This document shows positions 1 to 13,036 of a stretch of 16,143 nucleotides of DNA, one piece after another. Position 1 is the first letter of the stretch. Every line of letters begins with the position of its first letter. The notes beneath the pieces were generated by a model. That model saw nothing but the letters and a program-made list of their open reading frames with translations. It had not been told where the DNA came from and searched no databases. Source of the DNA: a virus. Lineage: Duplodnaviria; Heunggongvirae; Uroviricota; Caudoviricetes. The position numbers and the translations under genes are program-made. The DNA lies in IMG/VR virus record IMGVR_UViG_2609459839_000007. One strand, given 5' to 3'.

Positions 1-1158
1 ATGCTCACCGTTAAGCAGATTGAAGCAGCAAAGCCGAAAGAAAAACCATACCGCCTACTCGATGGTAATGGCCTGTACCTTTATGTCCCTGTATCAGGGA
101 AAAAGGTATGGCAGCTTCGCTACAAGATTGACGGTAAGGAGAAAATCCTGACTGTCGGAAAATATCCGCTTATGACTTTGCAGGAAGCAAGGGATAAGGC
201 ATGGACTGCGAGGAAAGACATCTCGGTTGGCATCGATCCGGTAAAGGCGAAAAAGGCTTCGTCTAACAACAATTCATTTAGTGCGATTTACAAGGAATGG
301 TACGAGCACAAGAAGCAAGTCTGGTCAGTAGGCTATGCAACTGAACTTGCCAAAATGTTTGATGACGACATTTTACCCATCATCGGCGGTCTTGAGATTC
401 AGGATATTGAGCCGATGCAACTGCTGGAAGTAATCCGCAGATTTGAAGATCGCGGTGCAATGGAGCGAGCCAACAAAGCCCGCAGAAGATGCGGCGAGGT
501 TTTTCGTTACGCTATTGTCACCGGAAGGGCTAAATATAACCCGGCACCTGACCTTGCAGACGCCATGAAAGGATACCGCAAGAAGAACTTCCCGTTCCTT
601 CCAGCAGACCAGATGCCTGCATTCAACAAAGCACTGGCAACATTTTCAGGAAGTATCGTATCGCTCATTGCGACAAAAGTTTTACGTTATACAGCCCTAA
701 GAACGAAAGAGCTTCGTTCCATGCTATGGAAGAACGTCGATTTTGAAAACAGGATTATCACCATCGACGCCAGTGTGATGAAGGGACGCAAAATTCATGT
801 GGTCCCGATGTCAGACCAGGTGGTTGAACTTCTCACTACGCTAAGCTCAATCACCAAACCAGTCTCAGAGTTTGTTTTTGCCGGGCGCAACGATAAGAAG
901 AAGCCAATCTGCGAGAACGCGGTATTGCTTGTGATCAAACAAATCGGCTATGAAGGTCTGGAAAGCGGTCACGGATTCAGGCATGAATTCAGCACGATTA
1001 TGAACGAGCACGAATGGCCTGCTGACGCTATTGAAGTGCAGCTGGCACATGCCAACGGCGGATCTGTGCGCGGTATTTACAACCATGCTCAGTATCTCGA
1101 TAAGCGCAGAGAAATGATGCAGTGGTGGGCGGATTGGCTTGATGAAAAGGTGGAGTGA
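1..1158 (+). CDS. int: Tyrosine recombinase / integrase, P4-like (CP4-57 IntA-type) family
   Basis: 385-aa ORF with ATG at 1. N-terminal AAKPK..YRL.DG.GLYL motif and C-terminal HGFRHEF... / QLAHANGGSVRGIYNHAQYLDKRREMMQWWADWL region are typical of P4-type integrases. Upstream att site or tRNA would lie outside the window. Confidence 0.9.
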   Translation: MLTVKQIEAAKPKEKPYRLLDGNGLYLYVPVSGKKVWQLRYKIDGKEKILTVGKYPLMTLQEARDKAWTARKDISVGIDPVKAKKASSNNNSFSAIYKEWYEHKKQVWSVGYATELAKMFDDDILPIIGGLEIQDIEPMQLLEVIRRFEDRGAMERANKARRRCGEVFRYAIVTGRAKYNPAPDLADAMKGYRKKNFPFLPADQMPAFNKALATFSGSIVSLIATKVLRYTALRTKELRSMLWKNVDFENRIITIDASVMKGRKIHVVPMSDQVVELLTTLSSITKPVSEFVFAGRNDKKKPICENAVLLVIKQIGYEGLESGHGFRHEFSTIMNEHEWPADAIEVQLAHANGGSVRGIYNHAQYLDKRREMMQWWADWLDEKVE

Positions 1159-1492
1159 TCCACCTTAACCACTATCGGATAGTACAAAGCTTTGTGTGTC
1201 CCCACTATGACCTGCATAATCAATGAGAAGATAACAGTGATGACAAACGAGGCAGAAGTCTTCTTTTCTTTCATGACTTCTCCAGCATGCATACCTTTCT
1301 GCCATGACTGAAGTGAATGCCTGTTATGAACGAGGATTGGCCCAGACTTAGATAATGAGAGAGCACGGTGCTAATACCCAGACACGTCACCAGCCAGGCA
1401 ACAACAGATGGGGTCATAGCAACATTTTGGAAGGTATCTTCGTATCATTATGTGGTTAAATAGACATAATTTAACCCAATGGAATTTTCGCC

Positions 1493-2095
1493 ATGCTAAC
1501 CTTCTGGCACGAATATTCAGATCTCATCTCCGCATTTTTAGCAGCTCTTTTAGGTGGCTGTTTCACGATGATAGGAGTGACAACTCAGGTGAAACAGCAG
1601 GCAAAACAGCAGGCAACAGCGGCCAGAGAGAAGCGTATAACAACGCTATTGGGTGTCAGAGAGGAAATAGACTCACTGATTAAACTGTATCAGGCCAGAA
1701 TGGCAGAAGAAATCGAAAAATACGACCGGAACTCACCGTTCGATAACATTTTCCCCATTACTCAAAACTACTTCACGTTCTATGAAGCCAACTCGGCATC
1801 CCTACCTGAAGTTCATAGAGAAACACTCTCAAAAATTGTGGCTTTTTATACAAGCGCAAGAAGCCTAATTGATTCCTATCGCGGCAATAATGCGCTTATC
1901 GAACGGCTGGACTCCACGCAGGTTGCAAGTGACATTACTGGCAACAAAGAACATCTTGCACACCTGAAAAGATACACAATCCTAGCCACAGAGTACGGCC
2001 GCGGATTAATGATGATTCATGATGAGGTCATGCTCCGCTATAAACAGGTTATAGAAGCCATCGATGGTGAAATCTCACAGCTACAATGCAGTTAG
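1493..2095 (+). CDS. Hypothetical protein; hydrophobic N-terminal segment (possible TM helix) followed by a helical soluble domain; no recognised family
   Basis: 200-aa ORF; residues ~10-30 (LISAFLAALLGGCFTMIGV) are hydrophobic. No clear SD before the ATG at 1493. An alternative start at 1568 is preceded by AGGTGG (1552-1557) and would remove the hydrophobic segment. AT-rich relative to neighbours. Confidence 0.5.
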   Translation: MLTFWHEYSDLISAFLAALLGGCFTMIGVTTQVKQQAKQQATAAREKRITTLLGVREEIDSLIKLYQARMAEEIEKYDRNSPFDNIFPITQNYFTFYEANSASLPEVHRETLSKIVAFYTSARSLIDSYRGNNALIERLDSTQVASDITGNKEHLAHLKRYTILATEYGRGLMMIHDEVMLRYKQVIEAIDGEISQLQCS

Positions 2096-2576
2096 CACTA
2101 CAACCTGTCCGCATATTGAGCGACACGGTCGGATTTAGTGGGCTGAATGTCCGTTGTGAGCACTTAACGGACATTGCTAACCGCCTTCTGAGTGAATTAT
2201 CAGGGAGTAGGTCAAGATGGGACGTAGAGCACAAATCGTGGACAACATTTTTCGGGCACTTTTTAAAAATGACTAAACTGGTAAAATTCGATGTTATGAG
2301 CTGCGCTTTTAAGGGCCGTTAGTCGCATAGATTGTTAATCTATTCAGCGTTACTCATTCTCCAGATTACCAATTTAAATGGATGCACGGCCACCATGTTA
2401 AAATCTAACGCGGCCCTAAAGTCAGAGTGTAATGGGAAATGCAAGAAGTTATTTTCGTGCGCGTTCACTGGCGCACCTTGAGCAACCATTTCTCAATGCG
2501 TCTTAAAAGAGATGACTTGACTAAATTATGTATGCACTATCTGAATCTGATTTTTTTACTTAAAAGGGGGTTTTCA

Positions 2577-3476
2577 ATGACAGCAATAGCCTGCTGGCTA
2601 AACAGGGAAGAAGGGGAAAGTATCTGGGCCGTAAGCGACTCAAGAATCACCCAGCATGAAAGTGTAATGACAAATCACTGTCCTAAACTATTCTCGATTC
2701 CGGTATCAGTTATTCGCTCCAATGACATATACCGTCTATCTCCGGAAAAAATTATGGAGTTTGGTTTCGGCTTTGCAGGAGGAACAATGATCGGTATAAA
2801 TGTGAAGGAGTTACTTGCCGTATCATTATCTTCATTACATGAAGTTAATTATTATGATGTTCAGCAGCCGGAGTTGACTTATGATAGTTACCCGAGTCTT
2901 TATGAAATTGCAGTTTTAACAAAGGGAATCGCGGAAAAATTTATACTGGATATTGGCCAGTTTTTTCCCCGTTCTGTAGCAACGGAGATGATTATTTACG
3001 GATTCTGTTTCAGAACACAGGTACATAAAATCATTAAGATCTACAACACCCCATCAAACCCCACTAATCTTGTAATTGAGGACTGCCTTGACCTGACAAC
3101 AGGTACCCCGGTAGTCTTGGGAGACAGAAAGCAGCAGTTTCGGGAAGATATTGAGATGACGAGGGGGCGTTTTGAGAATGGCACGCTTAACTGGTGGCGG
3201 GCGTCATTTATCGCGTTAAACAACTGGATATCTCAGGACACCGTAAATACAATTGGTGGGCATATTCAGTTCTCAATGGCGAATAGAATTGGCACAAGAA
3301 ATCTTTTTATGTCCAGCTCAGAGTCTAACCCCCTTGATATGACCTATGCCGGAATCAGTAATACAAGTGCTCTAGGATTTACCATTGGACAACTTAGTAT
3401 TATGCCAATGTTAGGTATGACCCTTCCTGGGGAAAATGGCTGGCCATACGGCGATCAAATACTCCATAATGATTAG
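2577..3476 (+). CDS. Hypothetical protein with proteasome beta-subunit / HslV-like N-terminal nucleophile (Ntn) hydrolase signature and a C-terminal extension
   Basis: 299-aa ORF starting at the ATG at 2577, 6 nt after AAGGGGG (preferred over the in-frame upstream ATG at 2439, which lacks an SD). N-terminus MTAIACWLN...AVSDSRIT...K...GFGFAGGTMIG parallels E. coli HslV TTIVSVRRN...IAGDGQAT...K...AGFAGGTADAF (recalled from memory): Thr directly after Met, Asp ~20, Lys ~36, GFAGG motif. Strongly AT-rich. Confidence 0.6.
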   Translation: MTAIACWLNREEGESIWAVSDSRITQHESVMTNHCPKLFSIPVSVIRSNDIYRLSPEKIMEFGFGFAGGTMIGINVKELLAVSLSSLHEVNYYDVQQPELTYDSYPSLYEIAVLTKGIAEKFILDIGQFFPRSVATEMIIYGFCFRTQVHKIIKIYNTPSNPTNLVIEDCLDLTTGTPVVLGDRKQQFREDIEMTRGRFENGTLNWWRASFIALNNWISQDTVNTIGGHIQFSMANRIGTRNLFMSSSESNPLDMTYAGISNTSALGFTIGQLSIMPMLGMTLPGENGWPYGDQILHND

Positions 3477-3637
3477 AAGGTTAAGTATTTTATATTGGAT
3501 ATATGGCTATTGTGCTGCCATGATTCTAACAAATTATGCTTAAGAGGTGGTGCAACTCCTCTCATACAAAAAATACGTAAAATCAGTAACGGCTGGAAAT
3601 AATTCAATACATACACTCTCGAAAGTGCATCAGCCAA

Positions 3638-3676
3638 CCGCAGCACGTCTTGCATACGGCGTGTCTGCGGTTTTAT
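3638..3676 (+). terminator. Putative rho-independent terminator downstream of the 2577-3476 gene
   Basis: Imperfect stem CCGCAGCACG / GTGTCTGCGG (6 perfect bp plus a bulged extension) followed by TTTTAT; convergent with the invertase stop codon. Confidence 0.3.
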
Positions 3677-4227
3677 ATAATCCTGGCTGGAAACCTCTTA
3701 TACAAAGTCGATACACCAATATCATAGATGATCGCTACCTTCTGGCGAGGAATTCCTGCTGCAATTAATCGTCCGGCCTGCTCCCATTGTTCTGGTGTAA
3801 GTTTGGGGCGACGTCCACCAATTCGTCCCTGTGCGCGAGCAGCTTCCAGTCCAGCTTTTGTTCGTTCAACAATCAGTTCACGCTCCATTTCAGCCAGGGC
3901 ACCCATCACATGAAAGAAAAAGCGTCCCATTGGTGTGCTGGTATCAATTGAATCCGTCAGACTACGAAAGTTGATGCCTCGTTCGCGCAACTCCTCCACC
4001 AGCACGACAAGATGCCGCATACTACGCCCCAGCCGATCCAGCTTCCAGACAACCAGAGTGTCACCTGCCGATAATGTCCTGAGCAGTTTTTTCAGTCCCG
4101 GCCTTTCGGACTTTGTGCCGCTTATCTTGTCTTCAAAAATCAGCTCGCATCCTGCACAGTTCAGCGCATTACGTTGTAGATCTGTGTTCTGGTCATTTGT
4201 TGATACGCGTACATAGCCAATAAGCAT
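3673..4227 (-). CDS. pin: Serine-recombinase DNA invertase (Pin/Gin/Hin/Cin family)
   Basis: 184 aa from the ATG at 4227 (MLIGYVRVSTNDQNTDLQRNAL..., catalytic Ser in VRVSTNDQ), preceded by GGGGGA; C-terminal helix-turn-helix region. The track ORF extends 12 codons further upstream, but the family N-terminus is MLIGY. Confidence 0.85.
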   Translation of the reverse strand: MLIGYVRVSTNDQNTDLQRNALNCAGCELIFEDKISGTKSERPGLKKLLRTLSAGDTLVVWKLDRLGRSMRHLVVLVEELRERGINFRSLTDSIDTSTPMGRFFFHVMGALAEMERELIVERTKAGLEAARAQGRIGGRRPKLTPEQWEQAGRLIAAGIPRQKVAIIYDIGVSTLYKRFPARII

Positions 4228-4253
4228 GGTAGATCCCCCTGACAAAAGCAGGA

Positions 4254-4730
4254 ATGATGCCATTTGCTCGTTATTTCTGCATTTTCATAAACGTTGGTTT
4301 GGGAGAAGCGGCAAAACGGGATGTGGGGACAGGGGAAAATCAGATACCGGACATGGCCTCTTTTGCCAGTGGTGATGGATGGATGAAATTACCCAACGGG
4401 AAAATCCTGCAATATGGTCGTGGTGCGGTTACGCCGACATTATCGACGCAAACAATGAGAATTACATTCAGCATCCCTTTCCCCAAAAAAGCGGACTGCG
4501 CCATGCTTACTCATTCTGGTGATGGCGGTGCGCCTTTAGCTGGCGCAGTCAAAGAAGCGATCAGTGAGGTATTCAGCCGTCAGGCCTGGAGGAAAAACCC
4601 AGCCACAAGCCACGCCGCTGCATTCAGGTCTGCCGGAGACATCTGGTCGACAGAGCTTTGCGGCACTTTCGCCAGCCGCACAATGTATTTAGATACCACA
4701 TGTGCCAGAAGTCTGACGGACTCATCCTGA
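4254..4730 (+). pseudogene. Orphan tail-fibre C-terminal variable segment (remnant of an invertible tail-fibre cassette), promoterless
   Basis: ORF reads rightward across the candidate crossover site; contains GDGWMKLPNGKILQYGRG, resembling the conserved GW.KLP.G.I.QWG motif of variable tail-fibre C-termini. No N-terminal tail-fibre body and no downstream assembly gene. Confidence 0.3.
4282..4307. other. Candidate invertase crossover site (gix/hix/pix-like 26-bp imperfect dyad)
   Basis: TTTTCATAAACG TT GGTTTGGGAGAA resembles the recalled hix/gix pattern TTnTCnnAAACC nn GGTTTnnnGAnAA; lies ~55 bp upstream of the invertase start, the usual position of the invertase-proximal site. Confidence 0.3.
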
Positions 4731-4731
4731 T

Positions 4732-5412
4732 TCATCTGGTAGGGATACCGTCACTGGCAAGCTTGTGACGCCCGTACTTACTGGTAATGACGGATTTCAG
4801 TTTGCGCAGTACATACGCACTGGTATGCAGCGTCTCGCTGTCGAGGTAGCTGTTATCCGCATCCGGCATCTGTTCGTTTTCAGCGATACCGTAACCCGCC
4901 AGAGAGGACGGCTGCCCCAGTTCCAGCCCCGGACGCCACAGATAGTTACCCTCGGTGTCTTTCAGCAAACGGATGGCAAACAGGCTGTTGTTGTTCATCA
5001 TGAACTTCGCGCCGGTGCGGTGTGCCTTACGCAGCGTGTAAATCAGTTTGATAATGGCGTCTGCGGTCACCGCGGTCGCTTCGCCGGATACAATATGCTG
5101 AAGTTTGCCGAACGCCCGGACCTTGTCGGTTTCATCAGTGGATTCATACGCCAGGAACCCTTTCGGCTTCTTGGTGCCATCGCCGGTGGTAAAGGCAATT
5201 TCTTCCTGTTCGGCAAATTCGGTTGCCAGCTCGCTGTTGATCCATGCTTCCACGTTGAAAAAGGCATCATCCAGCATTTTCTGGGTAGCCTGCGGGTTGC
5301 CGTAGATTTCCCCCATGAAAGGTTCAATCAGGCCCAGTTTTGAGGTGGCAGTCTGGGAGCGCGCGTCAGTCTCGCCAACCGGCACTACCTGCTGAGGTGC
5401 CATAGGCGACAC
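4732..5412 (-). pseudogene. Internal fragment of an HK97-family major capsid protein gene
   Basis: Motifs EIAFTTGDGTKKPKGFL, AHRTGAKFMMNNNSLFAIRLLKDTEGNYLWRP and GYGIAENEQMPD match HK97-fold capsid conserved blocks. The ~160 N-terminal residues and the normal C-terminal block are missing; the ORF opens with GTG only by track convention. Confidence 0.6.
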
Positions 5413-5551
5413 CCGTTGTTAACTTATCCATGGATTTCATAACCCCACCTCGCAGACAAAGCGGGTGTAAATTGAGGGAATACTACGAAACGTAACAGAC
5501 TCGGAGTCAGTGAATAACTCAGGTATTGGGTTATCAGCTAATATCGAGACT

Positions 5552-5585
5552 CAAAAAATGGAAAAACCCGCTCGACGGCGGGTTT
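5552..5585 (-). terminator. Putative rho-independent terminator (minus strand) in the AT-rich region upstream of the porin gene
   Basis: Stem CCCGC / GCGGG with A/T extensions (5564-5585), followed on the minus strand by TTTCCATTTTTT. Confidence 0.35.
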
Positions 5586-6012
5586 AAGCTGTGTGACGAA
5601 GTAACCACTCTTAACAGCATAACCAATTTTTTACGTACGTAAACCACTAAATGATATTTGCGAGAATGCTACCGAGTATTGAAAACACCACTACAAATAC
5701 ATAAGCAAATCCCAACAAATAACCAACAAATAATTTCCAGTGTTATTTTTAGCCGGTTTAAATTGAACCTTCAAATTATAGAGCACCTATAAATAACAGC
5801 CGTTAATATAAATTGGCTAATAGATTTATTTTTATTCAGCAAAGAGCCATGAATAGGATTCGATAGAAAAAAGTTCAGATAAAAATAGAGATCTACTTCA
5901 CAAATCAAACGAGAAACCAAAACTTACATCTTGAAATAATCACATTGATTAGATGAATATTTATCGCGCAGTGACATCATTTTTTAATAATAGTTCAAAA
6001 AAAGGGCTCACG

Positions 6013-7110
6013 ATGAAAAAATTAACAGTGGCAATTTCTGCTGTAGCTGCATCAGTACTGATGGCGATGTCTGCTCAGGCAGCTGAAATTTATAATAAAG
6101 ACAGTAACAAGCTGGATCTGTACGGGAAAGTTAATGCTAAGCACTACTTCTCCTCTAATGATGCAGATGATGGTGATACTACTTATGCCCGTCTTGGCTT
6201 CAAAGGTGAAACCCAAATCAACGATCAACTGACTGGTTTCGGTCAGTGGGAATATGAATTCAAAGGCAACCGCGCTGAATCTCAAGGTTCCTCCAAAGAT
6301 AAAACCCGTCTTGCCTTCGCTGGCCTGAAATTCGGTGACTACGGCTCCATCGATTACGGCCGTAACTACGGTGTAGCATACGACATCGGTGCGTGGACTG
6401 ACGTCCTGCCAGAATTCGGTGGTGACACTTGGACTCAAACCGACGTGTTCATGACTCAACGTGCAACTGGTGTTGCAACCTATCGTAACAACGACTTCTT
6501 TGGTCTGGTTGATGGTCTGAACTTTGCTGCTCAGTACCAAGGCAAAAACGATCGTAGCGATTTCGATAACTACACTGAAGGTAACGGTGATGGCTTCGGT
6601 TTCTCTGCTACCTATGAATACGAAGGATTCGGTATCGGTGCAACTTATGCGAAATCTGATCGTACCGACACTCAAGTTAATGCAGGGAAAGTTCTTCCTG
6701 AAGTATTTGCTTCCGGTAAAAATGCAGAAGTTTGGGCCGCAGGTCTGAAATATGACGCTAACAACATTTACCTGGCCACTACCTATTCTGAAACCCAGAA
6801 TATGACTGTATTTGCTGATCACTTCGTTGCTAATAAAGCCCAAAACTTCGAAGCTGTTGCACAATATCAGTTCGATTTCGGTCTGCGTCCGTCCGTTGCT
6901 TACCTGCAATCTAAAGGTAAGGATCTTGGAGTATGGGGCGATCAGGACTTAGTCAAATATGTTGATGTAGGTGCAACCTATTACTTCAACAAAAATATGT
7001 CTACTTTCGTTGATTACAAAATCAACCTGCTTGACAAAAATGACTTCACTAAAGCACTCGGTGTAAGCACTGATGACATCGTTGCTGTAGGTCTGGTTTA
7101 CCAGTTCTAA
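6013..7110 (+). CDS. nmpC: Outer-membrane general porin, NmpC/OmpD-type (OmpC family), intact
   Basis: 365 aa from the ATG at 6013 with signal peptide [30 protein letters not shown], and C-terminal ...GLVYQF beta-barrel terminus. Matches my recollection of E. coli DLP12 NmpC. The track ORF begins 20 codons earlier, but the signal peptide defines the start. Confidence 0.9.
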
Positions 7111-7272
7111 TCTAATTACGAAAAAGATATGTTGCGGGAGGCGTTGCCTCCCCAACATATAAGTGGCTCCCTCAAGCCACTTCCTTTAGAAGCACAACCT
7201 TGCTTCTAACTATATAAACCTTCTGTTATATATTACCCTTTATTTTTGGGGGCGTCTCAACGCCCCATTTTT
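7110..7272 (+). ncRNA. Candidate structured RNA downstream of nmpC (IpeX-like locus): four consecutive hairpins ending in a terminator
   Basis: Hairpins at 7127-7160 (~15-bp stem ATATGTTGCGGGAGGC / GCCTCCCCAACATAT), 7162-7181 (AGTGGCT / AGCCACT), 7188-7207 (AGAAGCA / TGCTTCT) and 7249-7266 (GGGGCG / CGCCCC) plus T-run. Equating this with IpeX is from memory of its map position only. Confidence 0.3.
7249..7272 (+). terminator. Rho-independent terminator
   Basis: GGGGCG-TCTCAA-CGCCCC followed by ATTTTT. Confidence 0.5.
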
Positions 7273-7299
7273 AATAACTTTTAGTAAATAATTGGCATA

Positions 7300-7683
7300 T
7301 TAATTAGAGTTATTAACAACGATATCCATCTCTAACCGGATATCTAATGCCATTAACATCCCTTCAATTATGCCCTCAGCCTTCTGTAACCTTTTCCCGA
7401 TATAACCATCAGAGCAGCAATGCTTACCTGCCAGTGACATGAATGTCATACCGACTACATAATAATCTACTAATAAATCGTGCAAATCGCTGTTGTTCTT
7501 TTTCAGACGGGCCATGCACCCGCAAATAATCATCGCGTCATCGTCACAACATTGCGGGCGAGATTTTACTTTTGAAGTAATTAATCCCTTAAAACCGGCG
7601 GCAATGGACGACCAGGTCACATCTTCATGATTATTAGCCGCCCACGCTCCCCAACGCTCAAGAACCATCTGAATATCACGCAT
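7300..7683 (-). CDS. quuD: Late-gene antiterminator Q (phage 82 / DLP12 QuuD-type)
   Basis: 127 aa from the ATG at 7683 ([22 protein letters not shown]...), preceded by GGAG; matches recalled QuuD sequence. Cys-rich zinc-binding region present. Confidence 0.8.
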
Positions 7684-7768
7684 CAACTTACTCCACAAAA
7701 ATCAGACCAGAACGCCAATTACAAGCAAAAATCAACAAAACAGTATTAGTTGATTGTTATCTCTGACT

Positions 7769-11533: not shown

Positions 11534-13036
11534 ATGACTCAAACTCCTCTATTACTTGCAATCATATTTTTATTGGTTGTTCTTGTTCTTTATATAGCTG
11601 CAATCAAACGCATCAAAAAATTACAATTAGAATTAAGTGATAGCAATCAAAAAAATGAAGAATACAAATCTCGCTTTGCAGATTATTTTAATGTAGAAGA
11701 AGAATGTAAGAAGCTTATTGAGAAAACAGAGCAAGAATGCTCCATAATAAAAGAAGAATCCCTAAAAGTAAAAGAAAATGCCAATAATGAACTAACAAAC
11801 ACCATTGAAAAAATGGATGGTATCAATAAACAAATCCAAGAGCTAAGAAGAACTTATAAAGAGAAGAAAGAAATATATGATAAACTAGTAAGGCAAATTT
11901 CTATTTATTCAGAAGATGTTGAGCTAGCCGAACTAGGATTTTACGAACCTCATTTTAATTTTGAAGATTCAGAGCAATTTAAAAACAAAATAAAATCCAT
12001 CAGGGATGAACAGAAATTAATGCTGCGGGATAAAACCCACTCTGGCGCAGTATATTGTACAACCCAATGGACTGTTGAAGGCTCTCGAGCAGAGGGTAAA
12101 AAAATGACAGACAGAAATATCAGGCTAACTACTAGAGCATTTAATAATGAATGTGATGCTGCAATTAGCAATTGCACGTGGAAAAACATCACTAAAATGG
12201 AAGAACGCATCACAAAGGCATTTGAGGCCATAAATAAACTAAACGAGCAAAATCACATATATATAAACACTAAATACCTCAATAAAAAACTTGAGGAATT
12301 GTGGCTTACCCATGAATATCGTGAGCAAAAACAGAAAGAAAAAGAAGAACAGGCAGAAATAAGGGCACAAATGAGAGAGGAGGAGCGTGCACAACGAGAA
12401 ATAGAAAAGGCCATGCAAGACGCAGAGGCAGAAGAGCGCCGTTATAAAAAAGCAATTGAAGCTGCAAGAAAGGAAATGGAAAAAGTTACTGGTGACATGA
12501 AGCAGCGCCTCGAAAATCGCATTGCCGAACTAGAACAGAGTTTGTCGCAGGCTGAATCAAAGCATCAAAGAGCATTATCCATGGCACAACAAACCAAACA
12601 AGGTCATGTTTATATTATTTCGAACATAGGTTCTTTTGGGGAGAATGTTTATAAAATAGGCATGACACGACGTCTTGATCCGCAAGACCGTGTAAATGAG
12701 CTCGGTGATGCATCTGTTCCTTTTATTTTTGATGTACATGCCATGATTTATTCGGAGGACGCTCCATCATTAGAAAAAAAACTACATGATGTCTTCGATA
12801 AAAAGAGAGTCAATCTTGTAAATCGTAGAAAAGAGTTTTTCTATATTACTCTGGATGAGATCAAAGAAGCTGTTAAAAAACACTCTGATTCAGAAATTGA
12901 ATTTATTGAGACAGCAGTCGCAAAAGACTTTAATGAGTCATTGGCTATTCGTAATCATGAAAATAAAAAAAGTGACAACAGCAACTCATCAATTATACCT
13001 GAGCGAAAAACCCCAGAGTTTGCAGATGCAATTTAA
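11534..13036 (+). CDS. Membrane-anchored coiled-coil protein with C-terminal GIY-YIG-type nuclease domain (T5orf172-like; architecture resembles DUF4041-T5orf172 proteins)
   Basis: 500 aa; ATG at 11534 preceded by AAGGAA. N-terminal TM helix (LLLAIIFLLVVLVLYIAAI), two E/K/R-rich coiled-coil stretches, and C-terminal GHVYIISNIGSFGENVYKIGMTRR...PFIFDVHAMIY...KEFFYITLDEI (GxVY...YKIG, Arg, Glu). Very AT-rich. Confidence 0.8.
   Translation: MTQTPLLLAIIFLLVVLVLYIAAIKRIKKLQLELSDSNQKNEEYKSRFADYFNVEEECKKLIEKTEQECSIIKEESLKVKENANNELTNTIEKMDGINKQIQELRRTYKEKKEIYDKLVRQISIYSEDVELAELGFYEPHFNFEDSEQFKNKIKSIRDEQKLMLRDKTHSGAVYCTTQWTVEGSRAEGKKMTDRNIRLTTRAFNNECDAAISNCTWKNITKMEERITKAFEAINKLNEQNHIYINTKYLNKKLEELWLTHEYREQKQKEKEEQAEIRAQMREEERAQREIEKAMQDAEAEERRYKKAIEAARKEMEKVTGDMKQRLENRIAELEQSLSQAESKHQRALSMAQQTKQGHVYIISNIGSFGENVYKIGMTRRLDPQDRVNELGDASVPFIFDVHAMIYSEDAPSLEKKLHDVFDKKRVNLVNRRKEFFYITLDEIKEAVKKHSDSEIEFIETAVAKDFNESLAIRNHENKKSDNSNSSIIPERKTPEFADAI

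Follow-up and report, generated by a model that had tools for sequence, protein, structure and literature searches.

The viral sequence record IMGVR_UViG_2609459839_000007 (Caudoviricetes; the whole stretch of 16,143 nucleotides is called the window below) carries at positions 2577 to 3476, on the plus strand, a gene for a 299-amino-acid (aa) protein named "hypothetical protein" in RefSeq (WP_024248228.1). This protein is predicted to be a standalone proteasome-beta-like hydrolase that uses an N-terminal threonine as nucleophile. The enzyme class, a proteasome-like threonine hydrolase that has no propeptide and would not depend on an ATPase, is well supported by the predicted structure and by the conservation of the active-site residues. 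The family is also a credible candidate for a protease-type defence gene, a proposal that is plausible but circumstantial and that appears to be a reasonable hypothesis with contextual support from the gene neighbourhoods. The explanation as a whole, in which an active standalone proteasome-like (T1-type) N-terminal nucleophile (Ntn) hydrolase serves as conflict or defence cargo, is given an even chance of being correct.

Predicted fold and active-site residues of the 299-aa protein

The structure of the protein was predicted with AlphaFold2. The model built from an alignment of 25 sequences had a predicted local distance difference test score (pLDDT) of 79 and a predicted template modelling score (pTM) of 0.82; with 124 sequences, these values were 94.6 and 0.92, and the order of secondary-structure elements was unchanged. 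The predicted structure is an alpha-beta-beta-alpha Ntn sandwich with the topology of a proteasome subunit (strands S1 to S10 and helices H1 to H4). Foldseek returned 291 matches in PDB at E ≤ 1e-3, and the best 50 of these 291 were all proteasome or Anbu entries. Matches to beta subunits reached E 6e-7 (prob 1.00), with 245-263 aligned columns on targets of approximately 200 residues. Below this top group, structure comparison placed Anbu (16.8), alpha subunits (approximately 16-14), HslV (14.6) and BPH (12.8). An earlier note on this DNA, made from the letters alone, had called a proteasome/HslV-like Ntn fold, and this call is supported by the models, the Foldseek matches and the active-site conservation described below. 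That note had proposed profile and structural comparisons as a check; the structural comparison matched the proteasome fold, and profile hidden Markov models (HMMs) gave no match. Since profile HMM methods miss the relationship, the evidence for the fold consists of structure and active-site conservation, and the proteasome-like fold is assigned, as a prediction, with very high confidence.

A C-terminal extension of about 120 residues had also been suggested, and this was not borne out. Because the Foldseek alignments extend over 245-263 columns and a collinear hhalign trace runs through residues 1-261, the extra length is attributed to insertions within the fold and a tail. The proteasome-like core comprises approximately residues 1-250, followed by a tail of at most about 50 residues. 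Relative to HslV, insertions were found in the S1-S2 hairpin, a hairpin at residues 46-57, the H1-H2 loop (85-107), the region 161-181 and the H3-H4 link. The tail (positions 3327 to 3473, approximately residues 251-299) lies past the proteasome-like core, carries the clade-specific motif GM(S/T)LPxExGW and varies in length across the family; its pLDDT was low in the shallow model and 73-94 in the deep one.

The open reading frame (ORF) at 2577-3476 is virtually certain to be a real gene. Its translation has 299 residues and begins MTAIACW, in agreement with the Met-Thr product described earlier. A Shine-Dalgarno-like GGGGG run (2566-2570, plus strand) lies 7-11 nucleotides (nt) upstream of the ATG at 2577 and favours it over an in-frame ATG at 2439. 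Because this run, the RefSeq annotation of WP_024248228.1 as the shorter, 900-nt version and homologues starting exactly at this point all agree, the ATG at 2577 is the better-supported start. A 345-aa product starting at 2439 was rejected on the same three grounds. A scan of 1150-3750 for promoters and terminators gave results no better than those from shuffled sequence.

Conservation was assessed in 124 full-length family members with a mean column identity of 21%, which had been chosen for MT or MS starts. Threonine occupied position 2 in 121 of them and serine in the other 3. Since that set was selected for its N-termini, the fair figure for Thr2 comes from 174 unfiltered family sequences, among which the starts MT (147), MS (9) and VT (3) placed Thr or Ser directly after the start in 159; the remainder were mostly visibly mis-started or truncated. 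D21, K37 and G182 were present in all 124 members, G68, G142 and G227 in 123, W7 and G228 in 122, C144 and P210 in 120, and G63 in 115. With D21, K37 and G182 invariant and G68, G142 and G227 nearly so at this low mean identity, the alignment indicates that the motifs did not arise by chance and that the catalytic residues are under strong purifying selection. The expectation that the N-terminal Thr, the Asp and the Lys would be conserved in homologues was thus confirmed, and none of the three checks made on the earlier call refuted it. The protein is likely to be a catalytically active threonine hydrolase.

The motifs proposed in the earlier note were located at T2-A3-I4, A18-VSDSRIT-25, K37 (16 residues past D21) and G63-FGFAGG-69. 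Thr2 (codon 2580-2582, plus strand), which follows the start codon in the family and is found where strand S1 begins in both models, is the predicted nucleophile after removal of the initiator Met, equivalent to proteasome Thr1, and no propeptide precedes it. The other equivalences were read with the help of a low-stringency hhalign trace, collinear over 204 columns, which was used only as a guide to register and not as evidence of homology. Asp21 (codon 2637-2639), the predicted equivalent of proteasome Asp/Glu17, lies in DSRIT and pairs with Glu17 of Thermoplasma acidophilum beta in this non-significant trace (D21-S-R-I-T with E17-R-R-V-T). Lys37 (codon 2685-2687), the predicted equivalent of Lys33, stands 16 residues past Asp21, the spacing of Asp17 and Lys33, and its K-L-F-x-I motif pairs with K33-L-F-Q-I (K37-L-F-S-I in the window protein). 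This spacing and the DSRIT...KLFxI pattern resemble ERRVT...KLFQI of T. acidophilum beta and ADSRAT...KKVIEI of human beta5. In the GFGFAGG motif (residues 63-69, positions 2763-2783), A67-G68 pairs with A46-G47, and Gly68 is likely the oxyanion-hole Gly47; it directly precedes helix 70-84 in the 124-sequence model, which fits the place of Gly47 at the end of S4 before H1. Gly182 (codon 3120-3122) was aligned to Gly128 of the proteasome G-S-G loop on the basis of the hhalign register and its conservation, and Gly227-Gly228 (codons 3255-3260) to Gly170-Gly171, with the register taken from the trace. Of the reference sequences, that of T. acidophilum beta was identical to PDB 3c91_H residue for residue, and that of human beta5 had PDB 1iru_L as its full-length top match.

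No meaningful match to the hydrolase came from Pfam, NCBIfam, PHROGs or PADLOC, or from phmmer and profile searches of PDB sequences, and all public names retrieved for family proteins were "hypothetical protein". Although the hydrolase escapes the models of these four collections, a precise catalytic class can be assigned with high confidence and the residues of its active site can be named. Through a word-indexed search, 25 relatives were identified, mostly from Enterobacterales. An HMM scan with the alignment of these relatives against 1.84 billion cluster representatives detected 763 proteins at E ≤ 1e-3, of which 419 reached E ≤ 1e-10 and 80 reached E ≤ 1e-30, the 763 being clusters at 50% identity. 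Nearly all were 260-310 aa long (median family length, 278 aa) and matched from residue 1. Named members came from Escherichia coli, Citrobacter, Pantoea, Rahnella, Providencia, Proteus, Serratia, Psychrobacter, Halomonas/Vreelandella, Vibrio and Acinetobacter, and further from Azoarcus, Limnohabitans, Anabaena, and metagenome-assembled genomes of Sporomusaceae and Bacteroidota.

Genomic contexts and the proposed role

A search for related loci with alignment A1 yielded three viral and five genome loci, and approximately 16 independent neighbourhoods of the family were compared in total. About 12 of these were mobile elements and three to four were ordinary chromosomal regions. The gene had been described in the earlier note as standalone mobile-element cargo, and the contexts agree with this, as no partner gene was conserved among them. 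In lambdoid prophages, the gene occupied the cargo region between int and the tail-fibre genes (the window and L001, L019/L021, L030) or, in Serratia (L002), the immunity region, adjoining a RelA_SpoT protein that corresponds to PADLOC PDC-S33. In P2-like prophages, it adjoined PDC-S59 and ogr/gpD in Providencia (L004), was flanked by the baseplate V and tail S genes in Rahnella (L016), and was found in another P2-like context with an ogr remnant. In a P4-like satellite, it followed the alpha primase gene and adjoined a ScoMcrA-type HNH gene, and an AAA_21/DUF4276 pair lay on the far side of psu; this type of HNH nuclease neighbour was present at two P4-like satellite loci (L017, L031). A P4-like island of Citrobacter contained CbtA/CbeA, Psu, HD-CE/HATPase and HNH genes. 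In a Pantoea prophage (L006), the gene was 1.3 kb from a Cap15/CD-NTase cyclic-oligonucleotide-based anti-phage signalling system (CBASS). It directly followed a TraC-like ATPase gene in integrative and conjugative elements (ICEs) of E. coli and Citrobacter (L022, L028), lay between PDC-M27ABC and CBASS plus a SLATT/RT-UG17 pair on a conjugative plasmid of Vibrio (L023), and was near a defence-associated reverse transcriptase (DRT)-type gene and a zeta toxin on an Acinetobacter plasmid (L024). Known or candidate defence genes were thus present within a few kb in seven of the approximately 16 contexts, a count that has no background statistic: PDC-S33, PDC-S59, CBASS (twice), PDC-M27ABC, DRT UG17 (twice) and HNH/ScoMcrA (twice). 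Defence genes typically show such proximity to immune genes, but so does other cargo that serves conflict or fitness.

Three of these neighbourhoods had further features. The ICE-borne paralogue (306 aa, approximately 59% identical; L022 8001-8921 in E. coli 2012C-4502, and L028/L029 in Citrobacter) lies approximately 50 bp downstream of the TraC-like conjugative ATPase gene, on the same strand, in ICEs of the PFL_4703/TIGR037xx type. This arrangement suggests that it is co-expressed with the transfer operon, and the paralogue sequence occurs on 705 contigs. The Vibrio locus, on plasmid pTUMSAT-V.nig2-1 of Vibrio nigripulchritudo (L023, 356-12009), is a dense defence island of 12 kb encoded on one strand, in the order PDC-M27A/B/C, the proteasome-like gene, a CBASS cyclase with a 2TM effector, and a SLATT protein with RT-UG17. 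RelA_SpoT-domain proteins were encoded near the family in two unrelated prophages, at L002 6330-7451 (PDC-S33, Serratia) and L004 16040-16891 (Providencia).

In the mechanism proposed here, methionine aminopeptidase would remove the initiator Met and expose Thr2. With Lys37 and the amino group of Thr2 itself as activators and Asp21 setting its orientation, the Thr2 hydroxyl would then attack a peptide bond in the manner of proteasome beta and HslV. Since no partner gene is conserved, the hydrolase is proposed to work without an AAA+ unfoldase, as a self-contained accessory ("moron") gene that prophages, P4-like satellites, ICEs and conjugative plasmids may spread. The gene repeatedly occupies slots where elements keep immunity genes, which makes a role in phage or mobile-element conflict appear the most likely one. 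The likeliest form of this role would be that of a protease, encoded by one gene and serving in defence or abortive infection, that cuts a phage or host protein upon infection, by analogy with Lit of prophage e14. Judged by gene position alone, a conflict, defence or abortive-infection role is assigned a little under an even chance. A more tentative possibility is that the family represents a new class of anti-phage effector, encoded by a single gene and acting by abortive infection or exclusion, in the form of a proteasome-like threonine protease that has no propeptide and does not depend on an ATPase. No report linking a proteasome-like, Ntn or threonine protease to phage defence was found in the literature.

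Several observations weigh against this interpretation. The approximately 16 contexts were a small sample, biased to Enterobacterales and compared with no formal background model. No sequence-profile method tied the hydrolase to the proteasome family PF00227: the window protein had no Pfam match, PF00227 matched one of the 124 family members (E 0.08), and a profile search of PDB gave nothing relevant. In hhalign comparisons, the 124-sequence profile matched an HslV profile with a probability of 0.4%, pairing only FGFAGGT with AGFAGGT, and matched an alignment of T. acidophilum beta, human beta5 and HslV with a probability of approximately 2% (P 0.01-0.025). There being no significant profile match, the residue register therefore depends on the predicted structure and a non-significant alignment. 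PADLOC-DB 2.0, including its PDC candidates, contained no match to the window protein at E ≤ 1 or to the E. coli ICE paralogue at E ≤ 1e-3. Moreover, the characterised relatives that lack partners, Anbu and BPH, show little or unknown physiological proteolysis (PMC8665760).

The secondary supporting residues of the proteasome active site belong among these unfavourable points. The position of Ser129 is taken by D183, which is variable in the family (D in 59, S in 27 and N in 11 of 124), and only the equivalent of the flanking Gly128 is kept; the positions of Asp166 and Ser169 correspond to the unconserved V223 and I226, and only the equivalents of Gly170-171 are kept. Nor do HslV and other homologues universally have Ser129, Asp166 and Ser169. 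The lack of conservation would fit a catalytically dead scaffold with a proteasome fold, like alpha or inactive beta subunits, and to our knowledge no protease activity has been demonstrated for Anbu. Against such a pseudoenzyme, no variation is seen at Asp21, Lys37 and Gly182, and hardly any at Thr2/Ser2 and Gly68, in sequences of about 21% identity, and the nucleophile always stands directly after the start codon, a pattern unexpected without selection for catalysis; a dead scaffold is considered extremely unlikely. In the window protein itself, position 210 is Ser, versus Pro in 120 of the 124 relatives. This residue (codon 3204-3206) lies in a conserved W-W-R-x-P-F motif before helix H4, and relatives of 85% and 80% identity retain the Pro; Ser210 may be a clade-specific change or may mark a mildly impaired allele.

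The chromosomal homologues are a further point on the unfavourable side. In Psychrobacter (two species, in synteny) and Halomonas/Vreelandella, the gene stood among ordinary chromosomal genes, with neighbours for a short-chain dehydrogenase/reductase (SDR), OsmC, flavin mononucleotide (FMN) reductase, DUF938, phosphoenolpyruvate (PEP) carboxylase, LysE and DUF427, and no known or candidate defence gene was found at these chromosomal Psychrobacter and Halomonas loci. Another Enterobacterales homologue shared a small islet of the chromosome with an orphan Imm63 gene. Loci among ordinary genes would suit a cellular enzyme without an immune function, such as a stress-related peptidase, a specific maturase or a connectase-like transpeptidase, in general a peptidase or a protein-processing or -ligating enzyme, that hitch-hikes on mobile elements of Enterobacterales. 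This alternative is judged unlikely: about 12 of the 16 contexts were mobile elements, with the gene at classic cargo or hotspot positions, and no substrate-like neighbour was conserved. The distribution was patchy and the gene rare in E. coli (7 of 5426 complete genomes, plus 37 of 5426 with the diverged ICE-borne paralogue), a distribution usual for accessory genes and not for housekeeping ones.

Finally, a tblastn search detected the hydrolase in none of 50,697 sequenced phage genomes. This absence also bears on a role in counter-defence or establishment, in which the protease would degrade host immunity or restriction proteins, or those of a competitor, when an element enters or is induced. 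The position in ICEs directly downstream of the TraC-like ATPase gene on the same strand and the presence on conjugative plasmids fit such a role, and phages do encode proteasome-like proteins, namely PPH/AAH (PMC8665760) and a handful of uncharacterised phage proteins found by Foldseek in BFVD that share the proteasome-like fold. Besides the absence from the phage genomes, the prophage copies were located not in early lytic operons but in moron slots expressed in lysogeny, beside defence genes, and a counter-defence factor is regarded as quite unlikely. An ATPase-independent hydrolase carried as conflict or defence cargo remains the preferred explanation.

Neighbouring genes and candidate partners in the window

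The absence of an HslU-like or Anbu-type partner, pointed out in the earlier note, was confirmed in the window and at all other loci examined. No AAA+ ATPase or other conserved neighbour adjoined the gene in the window or at any homologue locus examined, and the Pfam families of the Anbu operon (ATP-grasp, alpha-E and transglutaminase-like) were not detected among the neighbours at the examined loci.

The nearest candidate partner was a 200-aa protein (WP_021577015.1; 1493-2095, plus strand), with one N-terminal transmembrane (TM) helix and an otherwise helical remainder, which was also encoded at L001 and L019-L021. A two-gene system could be envisaged in which this membrane protein acts as sensor or anchor and the hydrolase is the effector. 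Its TM helix and its weak matches in PADLOC, which were ZorB/MotB-like only (E 2e-3), are compatible with such a system, and the pair was found with an identical 200-aa protein (100% identity) and equal spacing at three E. coli sites: argW, a lambdoid prophage adjacent to torT, and plasmid pSM107_MCR. This linkage is uninformative because the copies constitute a single DNA block of approximately 99% identity. By tblastn, the 200-aa protein was absent from all other hydrolase loci, including that of the 80%-identical Pantoea orthologue; the gene upstream of the Rahnella homologue was unrelated to it, and a gap of 480 bp separates the two genes in the window. A two-gene system is therefore very unlikely, and the 200-aa gene is probably not part of the hydrolase system; it could be an independent cargo gene. 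This gene, which the earlier note had proposed to clone together with the hydrolase gene, is not a conserved partner and is confined to the approximately 99%-identical E. coli cassette.

Two other ORFs lie close to the hydrolase gene. A 78-aa ORF (2086-2322, plus strand) overlaps the 3' end of the 200-aa gene by 10 nt, has no family matches, is not annotated in RefSeq and is probably not a gene; it was rejected as a hydrolase partner because it occurs only within the 99%-identical E. coli cassette. At L019/L020/L021 (9308-10567), a third hypothetical gene (WP_104769331.1, approximately 410 aa, no PADLOC match) stands after the hydrolase gene and before a tail-fibre assembly gene. It was found in the torT-adjacent prophage and pSM107_MCR, and is missing from the window, where pin comes next.

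The window derives from E. coli; its bases 1-4308 were 98.9% identical to strain NADC1036, in which the gene order is tRNA-Arg, intS, the 200-aa hypothetical gene, the 299-aa hypothetical gene (WP_024248228.1), pinE, and tail-fibre and Mu-like baseplate genes. From this order, the hydrolase gene is cargo of a prophage at argW, with the integrase gene on one side and the invertase gene on the other. On the left, the cargo slot is bounded by an intS-type tyrosine integrase gene at the argW tRNA-Arg attachment site (1-1158, plus strand), and on the right by a Pin-type serine invertase gene (3673-4263, minus strand), followed by tail-fibre genes; both were assigned from Pfam and the RefSeq context. 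The hydrolase gene had been described as markedly AT-rich. Its GC content (42.2%) is indeed lower than those of intS (47.8%) and pin (49.2%), but "markedly" overstates the difference.

Lambdoid remnants in mosaic arrangement make up the remainder of the window. An abrupt mosaic junction spans 4254-7698: after a tail-fibre fragment (Gp53-like_C, 4254-4730) come a capsid gene that is truncated and lies on the opposite strand (4732-5412), a very AT-rich spacer at approximately 5400-6000 (GC approximately 0.30), a porin gene (5953-7110) and a Q antiterminator gene (7300-7698, minus strand). No complete E. coli genome covered at least 80% of either half of the window. Window positions 1-7046 share their length and the position of the hydrolase gene with the 7,046-bp IMG/VR contig IMGVR_UViG_2619619133_000005. 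Approximately 8 kb from the hydrolase gene, in a separate prophage fragment, a strongly AT-rich gene for a 500-aa protein (11534-13036, plus strand; GC approximately 0.28-0.40) gave a full-length match to the single-gene defence system PD-Lambda-1 (PADLOC E 3.7e-198; Pfam DUF4041 and T5orf172/MUG113).

Comparison with known proteasome homologues and defence systems

Proteasome homologues that lack an unfoldase (Anbu, BPH and 22 families described in 2021, see below) continue to puzzle, since neither a physiological function nor an informative gene context is known for them. The hydrolase family has a recurrent cargo-slot context beside CBASS, DRT, RelA/SpoT-type and other defence genes, and the function of orphan proteasome homologues is therefore directly testable in E. 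coli with one 0.9-kb gene. If the family does act in defence, a threonine protease would be a new effector chemistry for bacterial immunity, and this would be the first immune role of a bacterial proteasome homologue and the first function of any "orphan" proteasome-like family. If it does not, a large family of enzymes borne by mobile elements has still been defined.

Lit of prophage e14 is a zinc metalloprotease whose target is EF-Tu and whose trigger is the Gol peptide of phage T4. This abortive-infection protease is encoded by a single gene, which lies in the int/pin cargo region of a prophage of E. coli that is defective. The likeness to the hydrolase (a single protease gene in an int/pin cargo region) is a functional analogy only, and the two proteins are not homologous.

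Compared with the beta subunit of the 20S proteasome (MEROPS T1A, PF00227), the hydrolase has no detectable sequence-profile similarity, no alpha-subunit or ATPase partner and no propeptide; it has several insertions and a tail of approximately 50 residues, does not conserve Ser129, Asp166 and Ser169, and is borne on mobile elements. HslV (ClpQ) is compact (176 aa) and needs the AAA+ protein HslU encoded beside it, whereas the hydrolase has 299 aa and no ATPase. Anbu has a conserved operon (ATP-grasp, alpha-E, transglutaminase-like) and a long C-terminal helix, and neither this operon nor this architecture was seen for the hydrolase. BPH, at approximately 185 aa, is shorter than the 299-aa hydrolase. 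Unlike the hydrolase family, neither Anbu nor BPH is associated with mobile elements.

The closest parallels are the 22 new families of proteasome homologues, uncharacterised in function, that were described by Fuchs, Alva and Lupas (Bioinformatics 2021; PMC8665760), including GPH, PMI-1 to PMI-6, DPH, RPC and the phage-borne PPH/AAH. Their defining features are Thr1/Ser1, Asp17, Lys33, Gly47, insertions, C-terminal extensions and the absence of an AAA+ partner (PMC8665760). Like the hydrolase, these families are highly divergent and keep Thr1, Asp17, Lys33 and Gly47, and some are spread by phages. The hydrolase has the predicted catalytic triad and oxyanion Gly that Fuchs et al. used as the family definition, with the secondary supporting residues missing. 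It may belong to one of the 22 families, most likely GPH (by taxonomy) or PMI (by length and insertions), a comparison made by description only. RPC and PPH were ruled out, as both lack helix H2, which the hydrolase model has, and none of the accessions retrieved for the hydrolase family was a representative of the Fuchs families (e.g. WP_152342571.1 for GPH). Fuchs et al. reported no genomic context pointing to function for their families (PMC8665760), whereas the hydrolase family shows a context of mobile elements and defence islands.

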